In this document: one piece after another, positions 6,041 through 15,782 of the stretch
How the letters are laid out: every line of letters starts with the position of its first letter
Position numbering within the stretch: position 1 is the first letter of the stretch
UHGV virus genome: UHGV-0147861
Direction: 5' to 3' (one strand)
Source: a virus
DNA: 15,782 nucleotides
Program-made: the position numbers and the translations under genes
Notes under the pieces: generated by a model
Databases searched by the model: none
Seen by the model: the letters and a program-made list of their open reading frames with translations, nothing else
Told to the model about the DNA's origin: nothing

Positions 6041-6083
6041 ATTGCTCTAATGTATTGCTATTTCTTTAATCGAGGGTATTATA
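6041..6083 (+). promoter_or_regulatory. C1 operator-like site overlapping putative lpa promoter
   Basis: ATTGCTCTAATGTATTG at 6041-6057 matches 14/17 of the P1 C1 operator consensus ATTGCTCTAATAAATTT (as I recall it); -35-like TTGCTA 6055-6060 and -10-like TATTAT 6077-6082 follow. Confidence 0.5.
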
Positions 6084-6665: not shown

Positions 6666-7859
6666 GTGACCTGGGACGATCACAAGAAGAATTTTGCTCG
6701 CCTGGCGCGAGATGGTGGTTACACCATCGCACAGTATGCCGCCGAGTTTAATCTTAACCCTAATACTGCACGTCGTTATCTCCGTGCCTTCAAAGAAGAC
6801 ACCAGGACAGCGGACAGCCGCAAGCCAAATAAGCCAGTCAGGAAGCCACTAAAAAGCATGATCATTGATCACTCTAATGATCAACATGCAGGTGATCACA
6901 TTGCGGCTGAAATAGCGGAAAAACAAAGGGTTAATGCCGTTGTCAGTGCCGCAGTCGAGAACGCTAAGCGCCAAAATAAGCGCATAAATGATCGTTCTGA
7001 TGATCATGACGTGATCATCCGCGCCCACCGTACCTTACGTGATCGCCTGGAACGCGACACCCTGGATGATGATGGTGAACGCTTTGAATTCGAAGCTGGC
7101 GATTACCTGATAGATAACGTTGAAGCGCGGAAGGCCGCGCGCGCTATGTTGCGTCGGTCCGGGGCCGATGTTCTGGAAACCACTCTTCTGGAAAAGTCTC
7201 TTTCTCATCTCCTTATGCTGGAGAACGCCAGGGATACGTGTATTCGCCTGGTGCAGGAAATGCGCGATCAGCAAAAAGACGATGATGAAGGTACTCCGCC
7301 TGAATACCGTATCGCGAGCATGCTAAACAGCTGTTCCGCGCAGATAAGCAGCCTGATCAACACCATTTACAGCATCCGGAATAACTATCGAAAAGAAAGC
7401 CGGGAGGCGGAAAAGCACGCTTTGTCTATGGGGCAAGCTGGCATTGTTAAGCTGGCATACGAACGAAAGCGTGAAAATAACTGGTCAGTGCTGGAAGCAG
7501 CTGAATTCATCGAGGCGCATGGCGGGAAAGTGCCGCCCCTGATGCTGGAGCAAATCAAAGCCGATCTGCGTGCTCCTAAGACCAATACCGATGATGAGGA
7601 AAGGCAAACTGCCGTCGGTGGCCCTTCTCTTGAAGATCTGGACAAAGTTGCGCGAGAACGGGCCGCCAACCGCCGCGCCGATGCCGCATTGTGGATTGAG
7701 CAACGTAGGGAAGAAATCGCCGATATCGTTGATACAGGCGGTTATGGAGATGTTGATACTGAAGGTGTATCAAACGACCCATGGCTGGAACAAGACCTGG
7801 ACGAAGACGAGGAGGAAGACGAAGAAGTTACCCGCAAGCTATACGGGGATGATGATTAA
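6666..7859 (+). CDS. pacA: Terminase small/pac-recognition subunit PacA
   Basis: 397-aa ORF with GTG start and AGGAAG RBS; contains the pac hexamer arrays in its 5' third; acidic [10 protein letters not shown]-terminus; directly followed by pacB with a 1-nt overlap. Confidence 0.85.
6859..7017. other. pac packaging site: two arrays of TGATC(A/G) hexamers
   Basis: Four TGATCA copies at 6859-6864, 6866-6871, 6878-6883, 6893-6898 and three TGATC(A/G) copies at 6989-6994, 7001-7006, 7012-7017, about 90 bp apart; each contains a Dam GATC site. Matches the described P1 pac architecture. Confidence 0.8.
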
Positions 7860-9343
7860 TGGCCAGAAGTTGCGTAACGGATCCACGTTGGCGCGAGCTG
7901 GTGGCGCTATATCGTTATGACTGGATTGCGGCCGCTGATGTTTTGTTCGGCAAAACACCTACCTGGCAGCAGGATCTGATTATTGAGTCTGTGCAGGAAC
8001 AGGGTAGCAAGACATCTGTTTCGTCTGGTCACGGTACCGGGAAATCAGACATGACTTCTATCATGATCATGTTGTTCATAATCATGTATCCCGGTGCCCG
8101 CGCCATTATCGTTGCGAACAAAATTCAGCAGGTAATGACCGGTATATTCAAGTACATCAAGATAAACTGGGCTACTGCCACCAGCCGTTTTCCATGGCTT
8201 GCTGATTATTTTGTTCTGACAGAAACCGCTTTCTATGAGGTTACTGGTAAAGGTGTATGGACTGTAGTACCGAAGGGCTTTCGTCTGGGAAGTGAAGAAG
8301 CTCTCGCCGGTGAACACGCAGATCATCTTCTGTATATTATCGATGAAGCCTCCGGTGTCAGTGATAGAGCTTTCGGTATCATCACCGGTGCTCTTACCGG
8401 ACAGGATAACCGCATCTTATTACTGTCACAGCCTACACGCCCAAGCGGCTATTTCTACGATACTCACCATAAACTGGCCAAGCGTCCTGGTAACCCAGAT
8501 GGCGTTTATACGGCGATCACGCTTAACAGTGAGGAATCACCGCTGGTAACGCCAGAATTTATCAAAATGAAGCTGGCGGAGTACGGCGGGCGTGATAACC
8601 CTATGTACATGATTAAGGTACGCGGGCTATTCCCTAAATCACAGGACGGCTTCCTTCTTGGACGTGATGAGGTTGAACGTGCGACGCGGCGGAAAGTCAA
8701 GATTGCCAAAGGATGGGGCTGGCTTGCATGTGTGGACGTTGCTGGTGGTACAGGACGGGATAAGTCCGTTATCAATATCATGATGGTGTCCGGCCAGCGA
8801 AATAAACGCCGTGTAATCAACTATCGAATGCTGGAATACACAGACGTTACAGAAACGCAGCTTGCCGCCAAAATTTTCGCAGAATGTAATCCTGAGCGAT
8901 TCCCCAATATCACCATAGCGATAGACGGCGATGGCCTGGGTAAAGCAACGGCGGATCTGATGTACGAGTATTATGGTATTACCGTACAGCGTATACGCTG
9001 GGGTAAAAAGATGCATAGCCGTGAAGATAAGAGCCTGTACTTTGATAAACGTGCTTATGCCAATGTTCAAGCCGCAGAGGCCGTAAAATCTGGTCGTATG
9101 AGACTGGATAAGGGTAATGAAACTATTGAGGAAGCGTCGAAAATCCCTGTAGGGATTAACTCCGCAGGTCAATGGAAGGTGATGAGTAAGGAGGATATGA
9201 AGAAAAAACTCAACCTGCACTCACCAGACCATTGGGATACATATTGTTTCGCTATGCTGGCGGATTATGTTCCCCAGGATGAAGTGCTTAGCGTCGAAGA
9301 CGAAGCGCAGGTTGATGAAGCTCTGGCATGGCTTAATGAATGA
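7859..9343 (+). CDS. pacB: Terminase large subunit PacB
   Basis: 494-aa ORF; Walker A-like GHGTGKS near the N-terminus, Walker B-like [11 protein letters not shown]-terminal nuclease-like region; start overlaps the pacA stop. Confidence 0.9.
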
Positions 9344-9346
9344 ATA

Positions 9347-9363
9347 TTTGCTCTAATAAATTG
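9347..9363 (+). promoter_or_regulatory. C1 operator-like site upstream of the immI module
   Basis: TTTGCTCTAATAAATTG matches 15/17 of the C1 operator consensus; located 4 nt after the pacB stop and upstream of the c4/icd/ant region. Confidence 0.5.
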
Positions 9364-9495
9364 TGTTTTTTAGCTACCGATGCTACATTGAACCTGACCT
9401 CTTGCGCCTTGTGGCATTTTCGGTTTATGCTTATCAGGCACCTCATTAAAACGGGTGCCGGGATTGAGACCCCGGATAATGCAAAAGGCGACACA

Positions 9496-9517
9496 GACGC
9501 CAAAAGCGTCTTTTTTT
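9496..9517 (+). terminator. Possible intrinsic terminator or attenuator hairpin
   Basis: GACGC-CAAAA-GCGTC hairpin (9496-9510) followed by a run of seven T (9511-9517); the stem is short, so strength is uncertain. Confidence 0.35.
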
Positions 9518-9554
9518 GTGTCATGCCATCGCACAGCCATACGTAGCGTTTAGC

Positions 9555-9650
9555 TCAGAGATCAATGGTAGTGCTGGCTGGGCTGCCGAAAGGCAGGCCG
9601 GTTCCCTTTTGCGCCGGTAGTCTCAACCCAGTCAGTGCTACCGCCATTGA
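9555..9650 (+). ncRNA. c4: c4-like antisense RNA (immI repressor RNA), boundaries approximate
   Basis: Structured region with a GNRA-capped hairpin (CUGCC-GAAA-GGCAG, 9583-9596) and a long G-U-containing stem. Two elements are complementary to the downstream leader: 9636-9643 GCUACCGC pairs with 9665-9672 GCGGUAGC, and 9563-9571 CAAUGGUAG pairs with 9695-9703 CUGCCAUUG, bracketing the icd RBS and start codon. Confidence 0.5.
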
Positions 9651-9702
9651 GATTGAGACCTCACGCGGTAGCTCCTTAAATTAGCAAAAGGAGGCTGCCA
9701 TT

Positions 9703-9924
9703 GTGGCTACTATCCCTACCCCTGCTCATCCTGAATTTATCTGGCGCTTTTACTCCTGCCAAAAACGTCACTATCACTTCGTTATTGCACCGACAGAAGA
9801 TGAGGCACGTTCTCAGCTTCCTGACGCCCCATGTATTTTCTCTGCCCGTTTTTCCACTGATTCACACAATTCTCTCAGTTACTGGTGCCTCCCTGTTAAC
9901 GCTTCTGCTCTGGAGGGGCTATGA
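9703..9924 (+). CDS. icd: Icd-like small protein (73 aa), translationally coupled to ant
   Basis: GTG 9703 preceded by AAAGGAGG at 9687-9694; stop overlaps the ant ATG (ATGA, 9921-9924); size and position match the P1 icd gene as I recall it. The protein sequence itself is not recognised. Confidence 0.55.
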   Translation: MATIPTPAHPEFIWRFYSCQKRHYHFVIAPTEDEARSQLPDAPCIFSARFSTDSHNSLSYWCLPVNASALEGL

Positions 9925-11036
9925 GAACATCATTAGTCACCCGTAAAGAAATGATCGAGGCAATTGAACAGCACACTGCCTGTATCAGTACCAGGGATAT
10001 ACCTGGCGTTATTGCCAACTACTTCATGATCACCAAACAACTTTACCGGAGAAAGGACAAAAACGCGGTTCACCGCATTCTGCTAACCGATATCCGTGAA
10101 TACCTGCTCGAACAGGGTCATCTGAATTACGCAACCGTCGCAGCCGAAGCACGCAAGGAGGCACACAGAATGAAAGCAACTAACGTTAAATCAGAAAAAA
10201 CTCATGCACCTTCAGTTCAGGAATCGGAGCTGGTGGTTGTTCAGAATCAGTCTGATGAAATTCCCGTTCTGGAATGGCTGGGAGTGCGTGTAGTGACAAC
10301 TAAGATCCTTGCTAAGGGGTATGGGACAGATGCGGATAACATCAAGAAGAACTTTTCCCGTAATGCTGAACGTTTTTGTGAAGGCAAGCATTTCTATAAA
10401 GTTATTGGAGATGATTTGAACAATTTGCGGGTGACTTTAAGTAACTCACAAAATCCTATCTCTCCTAAAGCCCGCTCACTCATCCTCTGGACGGAACGCG
10501 GCGCAGCCCGCCACGCTAAAATGATCGAAACCGATCAGGCATGGGCATTCTTTGAAAAACTGGAAGACAGCTACTTCCGACAAAAAGAACAGCAACCGAT
10601 CGCAATCCCCCAGACGCTTCCAGAAGCTCTGCGCCTTGCTGCCGAACTGGCTGAACAAAAGCAACTTCTGGAACAGAAAGCCCATCAGCTAAATCAGCAG
10701 CTGGTGGCCGCAGCCCCCAAAGTCGATTTTGCCGACCGGGTATCAGTGGCTAAGGGGATCCTGATTGGGAATTTTGCAAAGGTCGTTGGACTTAAACAAA
10801 ATGCGCTGTTTGCCTGGTTACGGGAGAACGGCATTCTGATAGCGTCCGGCGGCCGTAAAAATGTACCGTTCCAGCAGTACATAAACGCCGGATATTTCAC
10901 AGTGAAAGAAGTGGTGCTGGATGATGAAGAGGGCTACCAGATACGGCTGACGCCCCAATTAACGGGGAAAGGCCAACAGTGGTTGACGCGTAAACTGCTC
11001 GATGCTGGCTTGTTAAAACCGGTGGCGGCTGAATAA
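9921..11036 (+). CDS. ant: Antirepressor Ant (Ant1; in-frame internal start at 10170 gives Ant2)
   Basis: 371-aa ORF with phage antirepressor-type N- and C-terminal regions (C-terminal KilA-C/ANT-like segment PKVDFADRVSVAKGILIGNFAKVVGLKQNALFAWLRENGIL). Internal ATG 10170 has AAGGAGG at 10155-10161 and would give a 288-aa product; the size ratio matches P1 Ant1/Ant2 (about 42/32 kDa). Confidence 0.8.
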   Translation: MRTSLVTRKEMIEAIEQHTACISTRDIPGVIANYFMITKQLYRRKDKNAVHRILLTDIREYLLEQGHLNYATVAAEARKEAHRMKATNVKSEKTHAPSVQESELVVVQNQSDEIPVLEWLGVRVVTTKILAKGYGTDADNIKKNFSRNAERFCEGKHFYKVIGDDLNNLRVTLSNSQNPISPKARSLILWTERGAARHAKMIETDQAWAFFEKLEDSYFRQKEQQPIAIPQTLPEALRLAAELAEQKQLLEQKAHQLNQQLVAAAPKVDFADRVSVAKGILIGNFAKVVGLKQNALFAWLRENGILIASGGRKNVPFQQYINAGYFTVKEVVLDDEEGYQIRLTPQLTGKGQQWLTRKLLDAGLLKPVAAE

Positions 11037-11068: not shown

Positions 11069-11920
11069 TTATTGCGCGCTTTCGGGGTTGTCGTTTACTG
11101 GCTGCCCCTTCTTGGTTTTACGGCTGCGCGTAACTGATGCGGCTGACTTAACCTTTTTCTCTTCGCGAGTGATGGCAATTTGTTTTTTTACATTTTCAAT
11201 ATCTGCCAGGCGATATATTTTTGCTTGTGGCCAGCGGTCGCAGATGATCGGTTCTATGGAGTCATAAAGGCTAAATTTTGCTTTTTCGAATTCACCGTTG
11301 ATGATGATTCCATCACGGAGAGTTTCATCGCAGATAAACACGCCACACAGCGGTACATGGTAACTAACTGATTTACCATCATTGTAGTTAGGGCTACTGG
11401 AGATGTAGTGGACGCGCAGCATTGTTTCGCTAAAGCCGTGTACGCGCATACGGAATTTTTCATCCTCCGGGTACTGCTTCATTAGCTCTTTTGTTGCTTC
11501 CAGGTTCTCTATGTATTTCGCACTGTGCTCATTGATCCCCGCGCTTTTTTGGATGCGAATGTCCTTATCAATCAGATGAATAATGCGGCCAGCGGTCATG
11601 TTGACGCTGTTCACAGCTTCTGTCTGATAAGTTGTAACCTTGCGCACACCGCGAAGGATGTTAGGCACTGGATATAAAATAGTCTTTGGGATATTGAGGT
11701 CTGGGTACTGTTCCAGTTCCCGCGCCATTAAAGTCCATTTATCAATTTCAGCCTGAATGCTGTCAGTTTCTTTGAACGGTAGAACGACAACCGGGCGTAC
11801 AGGACGACCGTCGCTGGCTGTATCAACGTGTTGGGCGCGTGCAACAGCTTTTTTTAGAAAGAGATCCCTGAAGCTGACGAACTCCTGGTACAGTTGTTCG
11901 CCGTAGACATAATTTATCAT
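11069..11920 (-). CDS. c1: Primary immunity repressor C1
   Basis: 283-aa protein MINYVYGEQLYQEFVSFRDLFLKKAVARAQHVD... matches my memory of P1 C1 in sequence and length; strong RBS GGAGGAGGATCA before the ATG (minus strand). Confidence 0.93.
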   Translation of the reverse strand: MINYVYGEQLYQEFVSFRDLFLKKAVARAQHVDTASDGRPVRPVVVLPFKETDSIQAEIDKWTLMARELEQYPDLNIPKTILYPVPNILRGVRKVTTYQTEAVNSVNMTAGRIIHLIDKDIRIQKSAGINEHSAKYIENLEATKELMKQYPEDEKFRMRVHGFSETMLRVHYISSSPNYNDGKSVSYHVPLCGVFICDETLRDGIIINGEFEKAKFSLYDSIEPIICDRWPQAKIYRLADIENVKKQIAITREEKKVKSAASVTRSRKTKKGQPVNDNPESAQ

Positions 11921-12014: not shown

Positions 12015-12031
12015 AGATTTATTAGTGCATT
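12015..12031 (-). promoter_or_regulatory. C1 operator-like site between coi and c1
   Basis: Plus-strand AGATTTATTAGTGCATT is the reverse complement of a 14/17 match to the C1 operator consensus; located at the coi 3' end upstream of c1. Confidence 0.4.
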
Positions 12032-12478: not shown

Positions 12479-12495
12479 TAATTTATTAGAGCAAT
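12479..12495 (-). promoter_or_regulatory. C1 operator (immC), 16/17 match
   Basis: Plus-strand TAATTTATTAGAGCAAT is the reverse complement of ATTGCTCTAATAAATTA, 16/17 to the consensus; upstream of coi. Confidence 0.55.
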
Positions 12496-12561: not shown

Positions 12562-12578
12562 ATTGCTCTAATAATTAT
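12562..12578 (+). promoter_or_regulatory. C1 operator-like site (immC), 15/17 match
   Basis: ATTGCTCTAATAATTAT, 15/17 to the consensus, about 35 bp from the transposon terminus. Confidence 0.5.
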
Positions 12579-12613
12579 TGATTTTTGTGCGCAGCTGGAC
12601 GTAAACTCCTCTT

Positions 12614-12802: not shown

Positions 12803-14380
12803 TTATCCTCGTTTTTCCCAAAACTGTTTTGCCAGTTCGCTCAGAGCGCTAGTTAACTGAGCGACAGATTTCGCACTTTGCAAATTATTCTGCCCGGTCT
12901 GTACATTGGTATCAGCAGCATCGCGTATATTGATAATACTGCGGTTTATGTCTTCACTTACTGCTCCCTGCTGCTCGACCGCAGTCGCTATTTGCGCGTT
13001 CATGTCGGTAATTTCGTTAACGCGTTGGCCAATTCCATCAAGAGCTGTAGCTGCTTCCTCTGCGTGAGCTACACTCGTGTGCGCTTGCCGACTACTTTGC
13101 TCCATGACTGTAACAGCGGATTGCGCTCGCTCTTGTAGAGCGCTGATCATGCTTTGAATATCCGTTGTCGATTGCTGTGTGCGAGCAGCAAGACTGCGAA
13201 CCTCATCGGCGACAACAGCAAAACCACGCCCCTGCTCACCAGCACGCGCGGCCTCAATTGCTGCGTTGAGTGCCAACAAATTCGTTTGCTCGGCGATCCC
13301 TCGTATAACGTCAAGAACTTTTGATATCTCGTTACTTTGACCTTCAAGCTCATGAATAACCTGAGTGGCTTGCCTAATTTCACCTTCAAGGGCAGTGATT
13401 GACTGGCTTGTGTGGGCTACCAGACGCTGGCCAGATGCCGTCTCAGTGTCTGCTCTTCCGGCCGCATCTGCAGCATGCTGTGCATTGCTCGCAACCTCTT
13501 GAATGCTTGCCACCATTTGGTTTACTGCCGTTGCTATTTGATCTGTCTCTGCCTGCTGCTCAACTGTAAGTACATTGCTTGACTCAATATCCTTTAGTAG
13601 GCCTCGGGTGTGTTCGCTAAGCCGATTTGATGCATCACCTATGCGACCTACTATGGCGCCTGTTTCAGCTTGCATCATTCGTAAAGCAAACTCTATTTGG
13701 CCAAACTCATCGGTGCGCCCAGTGTAGAGGGATTGACTTAATGGGTTATTGGAAATATTCCTGGCTCTTTCAACCAGTCTTCCAAGAGGAGAGAGAATAG
13801 CCAAAACACTAACAGAGCTTAAGCTTCCTGACATTAAAGTGGCTAACAATAAGCTGCTTATTGATGTATCAGTAAGCATGCCGGCAGCCATTGCGCTTGA
13901 TATAATACTACCCCATATGAGCAAGAGTATTTTCACGGAAAAGCTAGCAGCCAATTTCGGCCTCGCGGCCTTCCCGCTTCTCAATTGAGCATATAATTTT
14001 TCCGCAGCCAAAACCTGCTCAGGTTCAGGCTTGGTCCTTACAGACTGGTATTCAACAATCGAACCATTCTTAGCTATTGGCGTTACATAAGCACTTACCC
14101 AATAGTGGTCGCCATTTTTACAGCGATTTTTTACTAGCCCCATCCATGAGCGGCCAGATTTTAATGTACTCCACATATGCTCAAATGCAGCAGGCGGCAT
14201 ATCTGGGTGTCTTACGATGTTGTGAGGCTGGCCTAATAGTTCTTCCTCAGTGAAACCACTGATTTTAATGAAGTCAGGATTAACGTACGTGATATGGCTT
14301 TGAGGGGAGGTAGTCGAAAGAATATTGGCATCTTTTGGGAGTTCTAAGTTTCGACCCGTCACTGGTAAATTCTGGCGCAT
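12803..14380 (-). CDS. Methyl-accepting chemotaxis protein, Aer-like (PAS + HAMP + MCP signalling domain)
   Basis: N-terminal PAS-like region ([31 protein letters not shown]), hydrophobic segments, and the highly conserved MCP signalling motif [42 protein letters not shown]; corresponds to the orfI chemoreceptor-like gene of Tn1721. Confidence 0.9.
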
Positions 14381-14519: not shown

Positions 14520-14689
14520 ACCCTAACTTGATGTCAGGCAGGGCCGCGCCGCTTCGTCAGAATAGAGTCTGCTTTCCCATTTTTTGACACATGCCCGCGA
14601 AGGTTATAGATTTCAGCCTGACAGAAATGGGCTTTGAGGCACAACGGAACAGAAAGTGCACTTAAGCCGCCTTCAACCAAGGAGACATC
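14520..14689. promoter_or_regulatory. Putative res (resolution) site region and tnpR/mcp divergent promoter region
   Basis: Intergenic region between divergent mcp and tnpR containing repeated TGTCAG/CTGACA-type half-sites (TGTCAGGC 14532-14539, CGTCAGAA 14555-14562, TTTGACAC 14583-14590, CCTGACAGAA 14617-14626), the position where Tn3-family res sites lie. Subsite boundaries not resolved. Confidence 0.55.
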
Positions 14690-15250
14690 GTGCAGGGGCA
14701 CCGCATCGGCTACGTCCGGGTCAGCAGCTTTGACCAGAACCCGGAACGCCAGCTGGAACAAACCCAGGTGAGCAAGGTGTTCACCGACAAGGCATCGGGC
14801 AAGGACACCCAGCGCCCCCAGCTCGAAGCGCTGCTGAGCTTCGTCCGCGAAGGCGATACAGTGGTGGTGCACAGCATGGATCGGCTGGCCCGCAACCTCG
14901 ATGACCTGCGTCGCTTGGTACAGAAGCTGACTCAGCGCGGCGTGCGCATCGAGTTCCTGAAGGAGGGCCTGGTGTTCACTGGCGAGGACTCGCCGATGGC
15001 CAACCTGATGCTGTCGGTGATGGGGGCCTTCGCTGAGTTCGAGCGCGCCCTGATCCGCGAGCGGCAGCGTGAGGGCATCGCCTTGGCCAAGCAGCGTGGC
15101 GCGTACCGGGGCCGCAAGAAAGCCCTGTCCGATGAGCAGGCTGCTACCCTGCGGCAGCGAGCGACGGCCGGCGAGCCCAAGGCGCAGCTTGCCCGCGAGT
15201 TCAACATCAGCCGGGAAACCCTCTACCAGTACCTCCGCACGGACGACTGA
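14690..15250 (+). CDS. tnpR: Serine recombinase resolvase TnpR
   Basis: 186-aa protein with the resolvase N-terminal catalytic motif GYVRVSSFDQNPERQ and C-terminal HTH; GTG start with AAGGAG RBS at 14679-14684; matches Tn1721-group TnpR. Confidence 0.95.
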   Translation: MQGHRIGYVRVSSFDQNPERQLEQTQVSKVFTDKASGKDTQRPQLEALLSFVREGDTVVVHSMDRLARNLDDLRRLVQKLTQRGVRIEFLKEGLVFTGEDSPMANLMLSVMGAFAEFERALIRERQREGIALAKQRGAYRGRKKALSDEQAATLRQRATAGEPKAQLAREFNISRETLYQYLRTDD

Positions 15251-15253
15251 CAC

Positions 15254-15782
15254 ATGCCGCGTCGCTTGATCCTCTCGGCCACGGAGCGGGACACCCTGCT
15301 TGCGCTGCCGGAAAGCCAGGATGACCTGATCCGCTACTACACCTTCAACGACTCCGACCTGTCGCTGATCCGCCAGCGACGCGGCGACGCCAACCGCCTC
15401 GGCTTCGCCGTGCAGCTCTGCCTGCTGCGCTACCCCGGTTACGCGCTGGGAACCGACAGCGAGCTGCCCGAGCCGGTCATCCTGTGGGTGGCGAAGCAAG
15501 TCCAGGCCGAGCCGGCGAGCTGGGCAAAGTACGGCGAGCGCGACGTGACCCGTCGCGAGCATGCCCAGGAACTGCGCACCTACCTGCAACTGGCCCCGTT
15601 CGGCCTGTCCGACTTCCGCGCCCTGGTGCGCGAGCTAACCGAGCTGGCCCAGCAGACCGACAAAGGCTTGCTGCTGGCCGGTCAGGCCCTGGAGAGCCTA
15701 CGGCAGAAACGACGCATCCTGCCGGCGCTGAGCGTGATTGACCGGGCCTGCTCGGAAGCCATTGCGCGAGCCAATCGGCGGG
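15254..15782 (+). CDS. tnpA: Tn3-family transposase TnpA, N-terminal 176 codons (3' end outside window)
   Basis: ATG 15254 four nt after the tnpR stop; translation [62 protein letters not shown]... matches the conserved N-terminus of Tn21/Tn1721-type TnpA; frame is open to the window end. Confidence 0.9.

Follow-up and report, generated by a model that had tools for sequence, protein, structure and literature searches.

A probable IsrK/C4-type RNA immunity module between pacB and c1 of a P1-like phage-plasmid, with antisense determinants unlike those of P1 and P7

Antisense RNAs of the C4 family are known from the immI loci (c4-icd-ant1/2) of phages P1 and P7, and related modules are found in the satellite phage P4, in Gifsy-1 of Salmonella and in Stx and other lambdoid phages. 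The annotated record of P1 gives c4 as an RNA of 77 nucleotides (nt), with one target, a2 (TTGACAG), just on its 3' side, a second, b2 (GTTAGTGA), at the Shine-Dalgarno sequence of icd, and a further target set, a1 and b1, upstream. In c4 itself, b2 finds its complement (UCACUAAC) in the hairpin-2 loop and a2 its complement (CUGUCAA) in the junction that follows. Both sites are outside the closing stem, and c4 of P7 differs from that of P1 at exactly the hairpin-2 loop and the junction. This a'/b' scheme is restated in Additional file 1 of PMC2864571. The seqA and CI RNAs of P4 are structural homologs of IsrK and C4 (PMC3632133; also PMC4825925), and CI, as quoted in PMC4825925 and PMC3632133, acts mainly by premature transcription termination, shutting off the replication genes. 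In Gifsy-1, the C4 region is read as a 45-codon open reading frame (ORF) coupled translationally to anrP, and IsrK is an activator: its middle hairpin pairs with the 3' end of orf45, according to compensatory mutants, and providing IsrK in trans increases antirepressor translation 139-fold (PMC4825925). By its position, this partner of IsrK would match the a' segment of the RNA that takes the place of C4 downstream. Some Stx phage records (F039, for example) annotate both RNAs, as 'isrK Hfq binding RNA' and 'C4 antisense RNA'.

The locus described here was found in UHGV virus genome UHGV-0147861, of which one strand of 15,782 nt was analysed (the window, to which all positions refer). A C4 antisense RNA on its plus strand, at 9561-9648, is preceded by an isrK-like RNA and followed by an icd-like gene and an antirepressor gene. 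Together these in all likelihood form a complete IsrK/C4-type RNA immunity module, in which C4 would block the ribosome site of icd/ant through a loop and a junction of its fold. The RNA families involved are already curated in Rfam, and the element is a further member of the well-known IsrK/C4 system.

In an Rfam covariance-model search, the C4 RNA scored 75 bits against RF01695 (gathering score 45, E 2e-13) over the whole model (1-87 of 87). It folds into a 17-base-pair (bp) closing stem that encloses two hairpins, with a ViennaRNA minimum free energy (MFE) of -46.4 kcal/mol (z -5.6); hairpin 1 is capped by a GAAA tetraloop (9588-9591), whereas hairpin 2 has a 12-nt loop, followed on its 3' side by an 8-nt single-stranded junction. 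Across an alignment of 55 diverse loci, on which all the figures for paired and compensatory positions below are based, the three helices are 98.5-99.9% paired and vary in a compensatory manner at 18 of 27 pairs; the closing stem (helix 1) is 99.9% paired, with compensatory changes in 11 of 17 pairs, and its predicted unpaired probability is ~0. If the ends of the annotated 77-nt P1 c4 are transferred, the mature RNA is predicted to be 79 nt long (9567-9645). Features compatible with RNase P are an acceptor-like stem and a conserved 3' ...CCNCCA; RNase P was reportedly named for c4 processing by Hartmann et al. 1995. An AUG within the 5' arm of the closing stem starts a 39-codon ORF (9565-9684, plus strand), which spans the rest of C4 together with a2 and ends with a UAG at 9682-9684. 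This ORF has no obvious Shine-Dalgarno sequence here and is the positional counterpart of 'orf45', which is reported to be translated in Gifsy-1.

Two segments of C4, b' in the hairpin-2 loop (9605-9612) and a' in the junction (9620-9626), occupy the same model positions as b' and a' of P1. Each is the exact complement of two targets, one in the isrK-like RNA and one in the leader of icd (Table 1); within the 15.8-kb window neither target motif has a copy outside these two places, and each complement is found once, in C4. The isrK-like RNA consists of two hairpins, the second of which holds a1 in its loop, a single-stranded stretch with b1, and an intrinsic terminator (9495-9511) with its U-run. 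The layout of the window, a1 and b1, then C4 with a' and b', then a2 and b2, is thus the layout of P1, with isrK in the place of the c4-a1b1 motif of P1.

These contacts were followed through a comparative survey. The annotated set comprised 16 phage sequences, namely the window and 15 loci that include P1, P7, P4, D6, JL22, RCS47, 673R5, several Stx phages, phiP27, APSE-1 and a Klebsiella phage. Rfam C4 is present at every locus of this set, and isrK is above threshold in all but P1, P7 and 673R5, P1 and P7 carrying the c4-a1b1 motif in its place; besides P4, 11 of 12 further loci combine the isrK and C4 families. In 673R5 (L006), matching a1 and b1 sequences stand 5' of C4, in an isrK region that is below the Rfam gathering score. 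A scan of viral contigs with the Shine-Dalgarno/start-region pattern, which replaced an isrK-based pattern scan that had yielded 6 loci, added 120 loci, and every usable one of them has C4 upstream. After deduplication there were 74 distinct C4-plus-leader sequences, with 20 a' types, 33 b' loop types and 53 combinations of the two, and in all 74 the two determinants fit the targets of their own locus, a' both a1 and a2, and b' both b1 and b2. The best contiguous helix was 7.00 for cognate against 4.39 for non-cognate a':a2, and 9.45 against 5.21 for b':b2.

The C4 fold taken with both leader contacts is 97.1% paired in the alignment, with 31 of 42 pairs compensatory, and has a covariation score of 0.613, compared with 0.202 when shuffled and at most 0.096 in slid registers. 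Compensatory changes are found in 6 of the 7 pairs of a':a2 and in 7 of the 8 pairs of b':b2 (94% paired), which makes 13 of 15 for the two contacts together, and over the 74 unique loci a1 covaries with a'. One contig (L110 1195-2114, IMGVR_UViG_2737471848_000016) carries three tandem C4-leader modules in ~900 nt; the a'/b' specificity of each module differs and each has its own matching a2 and b2, an array of independently specified antisense units. Another locus (L034) has two copies.

Accessibility was assessed from the sum of opening cost and duplex energy, with mature C4 taken as 9567-9645, in a crude energy model that ignores kissing-loop geometry and Hfq. The net values with the leader were -5.65 kcal/mol for a':a2 and -2.17 kcal/mol for b':b2, and with the upstream sites -7.58 kcal/mol for a':a1 and -6.92 kcal/mol for b':b1; opening a' costs ~0, and opening b2 costs 6.4 kcal/mol. 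P1 homology, covariation and these energetics together indicate that the antisense determinants are very probably b', which lies in the loop of hairpin 2, and a', which lies in the adjoining 3' junction. An earlier note on the same DNA had recognized a c4-type arrangement, and to this extent it is borne out: a C4-family RNA stands directly 5' of an icd-like gene, and complementary sites flank or overlap the ribosome-binding site (RBS). The two elements that it had named as antisense determinants, CAAUGGUAG and GCUACCGC, are a different matter. They belong to the two arms of the closing stem and pair with each other, and so are not free in the folded RNA, and the annotated sites of P1 lie elsewhere.

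Table 1. Positions of the module components and neighbouring genes in the window
Feature	Position	Strand	Remarks
pacB	7859-9343		
C1 operator-like site	9347-9363	+	TTTGCTCTAATAAATTG; just 3' of the pacB stop; 15/17 to the C1 operator consensus
Candidate promoter region	9363-9431	+	Placed by alignment to the annotated tandem promoters P51a/P51b of P1
Candidate -10 element	~9380-9385		ATGCTA
Candidate -35 and -10 elements	9402-9407 and 9426-9431		TTGCGC and TATGCT
isrK / P4 seqA-like RNA	9438-9516	+	RF01394, 59 bits (gathering 50), E 1e-10, full length
a1	9464-9470	+	UUGAGAC, within the loop (AUUGAGAC, 8 nt) of the second isrK hairpin; exactly complementary to a'
b1	9481-9488	+	GCAAAAGG in the single-stranded stretch 5' of the isrK terminator; exact complement of b'
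C4 closing stem, 5' arm	9566-9582	+	Pairs with 9627-9643; holds most of CAAUGGUAG of the earlier note
b'	9605-9612	+	RNA CCUUUUGC (DNA CCTTTTGC) in the hairpin-2 loop; pairs with b2 and b1
a'	9620-9626	+	RNA GUCUCAA (DNA GTCTCAA) in the junction that leads from hairpin 2 to the 3' arm; partners are a2 and a1
C4 closing stem, 3' arm	9627-9643	+	Distal part, 9637-9644, is GCUACCGC of the earlier note
a2 hairpin, upper part	9648-9663	+	UGAG/CUCA stem closes the loop AUUGAGAC, which contains a2
a2	9653-9659	+	RNA UUGAGAC (DNA TTGAGAC); exact 7/7 complement of a'
GCGGUAGC	9665-9672	+	Sense copy of the C4 5' arm, 4-5 nt 3' of a2
Leader hairpin	9667-9699	+	CUCCUU (9672-9677) pairs with AAGGAG (9688-9693) of the Shine-Dalgarno sequence in MFE structures
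b2	9684-9691	+	GCAAAAGG; overlaps the Shine-Dalgarno sequence AAAGGAGG (9687-9694); exact 8/8 complement of b'
icd-like gene	9703-9924	+	GTG start, 73 amino acids; 78% identical to P1 Icd over residues 10-73; NCBIfam NF033153
Antirepressor gene	9921-11036	+	371 amino acids; Pfam ANT/KilAC 5e-31 and ORF6N 4e-18; 54% identical to P1 Ant1
c1 repressor gene	11069-11920	-	NCBIfam NF041318 (phage_rep_C1), 611.6 bits, full length

Five C1 operator-like sites were found in the window, compared with 0.09 expected. The region of the one at 9347-9363 aligns with Op51-P51a/b of P1 and P7 and is homologous to Op51/Oc4 of P1, and the candidate promoters are placed here by alignment to the annotated promoters of P1; a consensus promoter scan called nothing upstream, and one weak site within the leader (9653-9682). 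The other four, with 1-3 mismatches to ATTGCTCTAATAAATTT, lie at 6041-6057 (plus strand), upstream of lpa/pacA, and at 12015-12031 (minus strand), 12479-12495 (minus strand) and 12562-12578 (plus strand), between c1/coi and a transposon. The position of these last three, beyond c1/coi, is presumably that of the Op99 cluster in P1. The product of c1 is presumed to control the operator at 9347 and to be what the antirepressor acts on.

The module may then work as follows. Transcription probably starts at the C1-controlled promoter region just after pacB. Transcripts that end at the terminator at ~9516 would yield an isrK/seqA-like small RNA carrying a1 and b1, and read-through transcripts would go on into C4, the leader, icd and ant. 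By analogy with c4 of P1/P7 and CI of P4, RNase P and 3' trimming would excise a stable C4 of ~79 nt (9567-9645), which would keep the 17-bp closing stem and expose b' and a'. Binding of b' to b2 over the Shine-Dalgarno sequence, and of a' to the loop of the a2 hairpin, would block translation of icd. Because ant appears to be translationally coupled to icd, probably with Rho-dependent polarity as in P1 and P4, synthesis of the antirepressor should be blocked as well. The isrK-like RNA, which presents identical a1 and b1 sequences in a more accessible context, may compete for C4 as a decoy or activator, and the a' and b' sequences would set the specificity of immunity.

Several points weigh against this mechanism. 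The contact helices are short (7 and 8 bp), and b2 is partly buried in the leader hairpin, leaving a net of merely -2.2 kcal/mol for b':b2. That hairpin, in which CUCCUU acts in cis as an anti-Shine-Dalgarno sequence, is limited to the lineage of the window, including D6, RCS47, JL22 and L114; in the other lineages, the stretch between a2 and b2 holds a small hairpin that is not related to it. The exact output is uncertain, as homologous modules are reported to work differently: by a translational block and Rho termination in P1, by transcription termination in P4, and by silencing in cis that IsrK relieves in Gifsy-1. If the C1 operator is functional, moreover, the operon should be transcriptionally repressed in lysogens, and the contribution of C4 may be secondary.

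A layer that is compatible with C4 acting in trans, and would be added to it, concerns the distal part of the 3' arm. In the unprocessed read-through transcript, 9637-9644 may pair with GCGGUAGC instead of with the 5' arm and so display a2, in which case the choice of fold would set the yield of mature C4 against the amount of target on display. The complementarity of GCUACCGC with GCGGUAGC is the first of the two pairs of the earlier note, and is 8/8 Watson-Crick; its pairing level is 96.1%, 6 of its 8 positions show compensatory changes, and in the upper stem all three GAG/CUC pairs are compensatory as well (3/3). The spacing of GCGGUAGC from a2 is fixed at 4-5 nt. In isolation, the hairpin at 9636-9673, with GCUACCGC/GCGGUAGC as its lower stem, UGAG/CUCA as its upper stem and a2 in its loop, has an energy of -18.9 kcal/mol (z -6.0), and its loop, AUUGAGAC, is identical to the one that displays a1 in hairpin 2 of the isrK-like RNA. 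In the precursor, this fold lies 4.5 kcal/mol above the MFE C4 fold and excludes it. The closing-stem 5' strand, its 3' strand and the GCGGUAGC-type segment covary three ways throughout the family, so that the precursor may toggle between folds.

Yet the C4 fold is the more stable and forms first in transcription. GCGGUAGC can also pair with GCUGCC (9694-9699) in the leader hairpin, and the three-way covariation could reflect a constraint from some other partner, such as GCUGCC or the small leader hairpin; the helix is weak in P1 and P7, with a best contiguous run of 5 bp, and the contrast between cognate and non-cognate combinations is moderate (8.07 against 6.22). Without a U-run, and with a 20-nt loop, the hairpin was rejected as an intrinsic terminator here. 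The pair is a real conserved helix, best read from the covariation as a cis hairpin that displays a2. It is a tentative further step, plausible though less likely than not, to suppose that C4 combines the role of a trans antisense RNA with that of a cis conformational switch, whose setting would determine the ratio of repressor made to target exposed. Weinberg et al. 2010 no more than touched on the idea, with regard to loci that have a terminator-like downstream hairpin. The covariation of the closing-stem 3' arm with the leader segment beside a2 is the sole point here that goes beyond the textbook a'/b' scheme, and the conserved alternative helix, if true as a switch, would be a modest, testable addition to a 35-year-old model.

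A second possibility is that the module follows the logic of Gifsy-1: a1 and b1 would pair in cis with a' and b', silencing the long transcript, isrK acting in trans would switch icd-ant on, and free C4 would play a minor part. The front end of isrK and C4 is indeed of the Gifsy-1/P4/Stx type and not of the P1 type, cis pairing and trans activation are backed by the compensatory mutants of Gifsy-1, and the lowest net energies are those predicted for a':a1 and b':b1. However, icd has a strong Shine-Dalgarno sequence of its own here, which b2 overlaps; a2 and b2 are conserved and covary as tightly as a1 and b1, which points to selection on the binding of C4 to the leader; and P1 and P4 (seqC), which also have a2 and b2, use the processed RNA as a repressor. 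Such a scheme is thus rather unlikely to be the principal one in this module.

There remains the earlier note's own proposal, that CAAUGGUAG and GCUACCGC block the RBS by pairing in trans with CUGCCAUUG, over the start codon, and with GCGGUAGC. The strings that it had quoted are all present (GCGGTAGC at 9665-9672, CAATGGTAG at 9563-9571 and CTGCCATTG at 9695-9703, around the Shine-Dalgarno sequence AAAGGAGG at 9687-9694 and the GTG at 9703), although GCTACCGC lies at 9637-9644 and not at 9636-9643; the two leader segments do flank the Shine-Dalgarno sequence, and the complementarity exists, the first pair being conserved and covarying and the second, CAAUGGUAG with CUGCCAUUG, spanning 9 bp, two of them G-U, or 10 bp with one more G-U. 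When the leader (9649-9705) was shuffled by mononucleotide and compared with the structured region, the chance of at least one 8-nt Watson-Crick complement anywhere in C4 was 0.045, and that of a run with G-U pairs of at least 10 was 0.147 and of at least 9 was 0.33, so that the first pair is marginal alone and the second is not above chance. The second pair is 79.3% paired, with an invariant core and two-sided changes at 2 of 10 positions, in 1-2 sequences each; since the Shine-Dalgarno/start-region search fixes its target sequence, its covariation had to be assessed on the C4 side and in the four loci without the motif. These four, APSE-1, Kp4865-1, P1 and P7, all retain a'/a2 and b'/b2. Nor does the second pair show lineage specificity (7.19 cognate against 7.08 non-cognate), and it is unsupported by covariation or chance statistics. 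Pairing in trans would be unfavourable for both pairs, with net energies of +6.31 and +11.56 kcal/mol, because opening the closing stem costs ~12 kcal/mol for each segment, and the first four bases of CAAUGGUAG (9563-9566) fall 5' of the mature end predicted from P1 c4. Co-folding of mature C4 with the leader, which the note had suggested, forms neither pair; as co-folding cannot represent loop-loop contacts it is uninformative for a' and b', for which opening and duplex energies were used instead. With a closing stem so uniformly paired and the annotated P1 targets elsewhere, it is highly improbable that these elements act as proposed.

The specificity of the module accordingly has to be read from other parts of the RNA than the closing-stem elements that had been offered as a handle for typing, namely from the hairpin-2 loop and the junction after it, positions that reassort freely (20 x 33 types, with 53 combinations seen). 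The a'/b' sequences of the window, GUCUCAA/CCUUUUGC, match neither those of P1 (CUGUCAA/UCACUAAC) nor those of P7 (CUGCUAA/UCACAAUC), and the choice between a P1 type and a P7 type that had been envisaged does not apply. Cross-pairing with the leaders of P1 and P7 reaches at most 6 contiguous pairs, apart from one mostly G-U run of 7 bp, and none of it falls at the a2 or b2 sites. The C4 of the window is closer to CI of P4 and to the C4 RNAs of Stx phages than to those of P1 and P7.

JL22, RCS47, 673R5, D6 and Ro157c2YLVW carry a canonical P1/P7-like c4-icd-ant1 locus besides this module. The canonical c4 of RCS47 is of the P7 type. That of JL22 (L143, ON018986.2 43227-44029) combines a P1-type a'/a2 (CUGUCAA/UUGACAG) with a P7-type b'/b2 (UCACAAUC/GAUUGUGA), a natural recombinant immunity type, which shows that the a' and b' determinants reassort. 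The module of the window is not at the canonical immI site, since it stands between pacB and c1, and a search with Rfam gave no c4-a1b1 match in the window. By its sequence it is a second C4 circuit with a specificity of its own, and because its a'/b' type differs from those of both P1 and P7 it should work independently of a canonical immI in the same genome. It also reads as a mosaic, in which an operator/promoter region and an icd-ant body related to P1 immI are joined to an isrK-C4-leader front end of the P4/Stx type; the mosaic junction falls within the first nine codons of icd. Some P1-like plasmid prophages thus have two C4/antirepressor circuits of different specificity, which bears on superinfection immunity, on the coexistence of related phage-plasmids and on induction, in elements that often carry resistance genes. 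There is also a gain for annotation: the RNAs of the module are unannotated in JL22, RCS47, 673R5 and D6, and the icd-like gene is missed or misframed in some records.

The closest records are those of the P1-like phages JL22 (97.5%), RCS47 (94.5%) and 673R5 (86%), whereas P1 and P7 match merely the last 42 bases of pacB. An empty site was found in plasmid CP056619, in which pacB is followed directly by c1, and the module is an insertion of ~1.7 kb between pacB and c1 of a P1-like phage-plasmid. The Shine-Dalgarno sequence of the icd-like gene stands eight bases 5' of its GTG, where relatives have ATG. The antirepressor is conserved with P1 Ant1 in its N- and C-terminal parts, and the start of its gene overlaps the icd stop (ATGA) as in icd/ant1 of P1. 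Two ORFs annotated in JL22 are probably not genes: a 68-codon ORF (9340-9546; gp120) has no family matches and overlaps the operator, promoter and isrK regions, and an 81-codon ORF with a TTG start (9701-9946; gp121, 'hypothetical protein'; L004 2662-2907) is out of frame with the conserved icd. In the record of RCS47, icd is not annotated at the module.

Beyond coi and the c1 operators, P1 homology ends near 12613, and a Tn3-family transposon of the TnAs1 type follows with genes for a PAS-domain methyl-accepting chemotaxis protein (12803-14380, minus strand) and a resolvase (14690-15250, plus strand). A 351-codon ORF (14534-15589, minus strand) without family matches is antisense to the TnAs1 resolvase gene and was rejected. 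More than 5000 plasmids match the window because of this transposon. The cre gene was not seen in the window, and is present in CP056619.

Compared with the described systems, the module resembles those of Stx and other lambdoid phages in having the two RNAs in the same order and at the same spacing, followed by regulators of the Rha/Ant type, in the same leader and start region, and in the same modular variation of a' and b'; those modules, however, belong to integrated prophages, and their isrK has a strong consensus promoter of its own (TTGACT-17-TATATT) and not a C1 operator region. With isrK-orf45(STnc1160)-anrP of Gifsy-1 it shares an isrK with a terminator, read-through to a C4-position RNA and then an antirepressor gene, but differs in having, between C4 and ant, a separate icd-like ORF with its own Shine-Dalgarno sequence, around which a2 and b2 are placed. 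The organization of P4 (seqA, then the CI RNA with seqB, then seqC) is matched in the isrK and C4 pair of Rfam families, in the Shine-Dalgarno/start region GGAGGCUGCCAUNAUGGCUAC, in the logic of a'/a2 and b'/b2, and in the covarying helix of the 3' arm with a downstream segment, which in P4 is GCUAUCGCC:GGCGAUAGC. Outside the P1-like group, the CI RNA is the best distant DNA match (73% over ~190 nt). Unlike in the satellite phage, the cargo in the window is a P1-type icd-ant pair, in a P1-like plasmid and under an apparent C1 operator.

The immI loci of P1 and P7 are like the module in the Rfam family and three-helix fold of the RNA and in the sites of a' (junction) and b' (hairpin-2 loop); in the placement of a2 just 3' of C4, of b2 over the Shine-Dalgarno sequence of icd and of a second target set, a1 and b1, upstream; and in the overlap of icd with an Ant1-like gene and the C1 operator and P51-like region upstream. 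They are unlike it in location, immI of P1 lying between sim and kilA-repL; in the C4 RNA itself, which in the window has no blastn similarity to P1 c4; in the setting of a1 and b1, which in the window belong to an isrK-type RNA with its own terminator and not to a c4-a1b1 motif; and in the leader and first nine codons of icd, which in the window are P4/Stx-like, as well as in the antirepressor, which here has an ORF6N middle domain. Finally, the a'/b' specificity differs from that of either immI locus, and in relatives the window-type module is present in addition to canonical immI.

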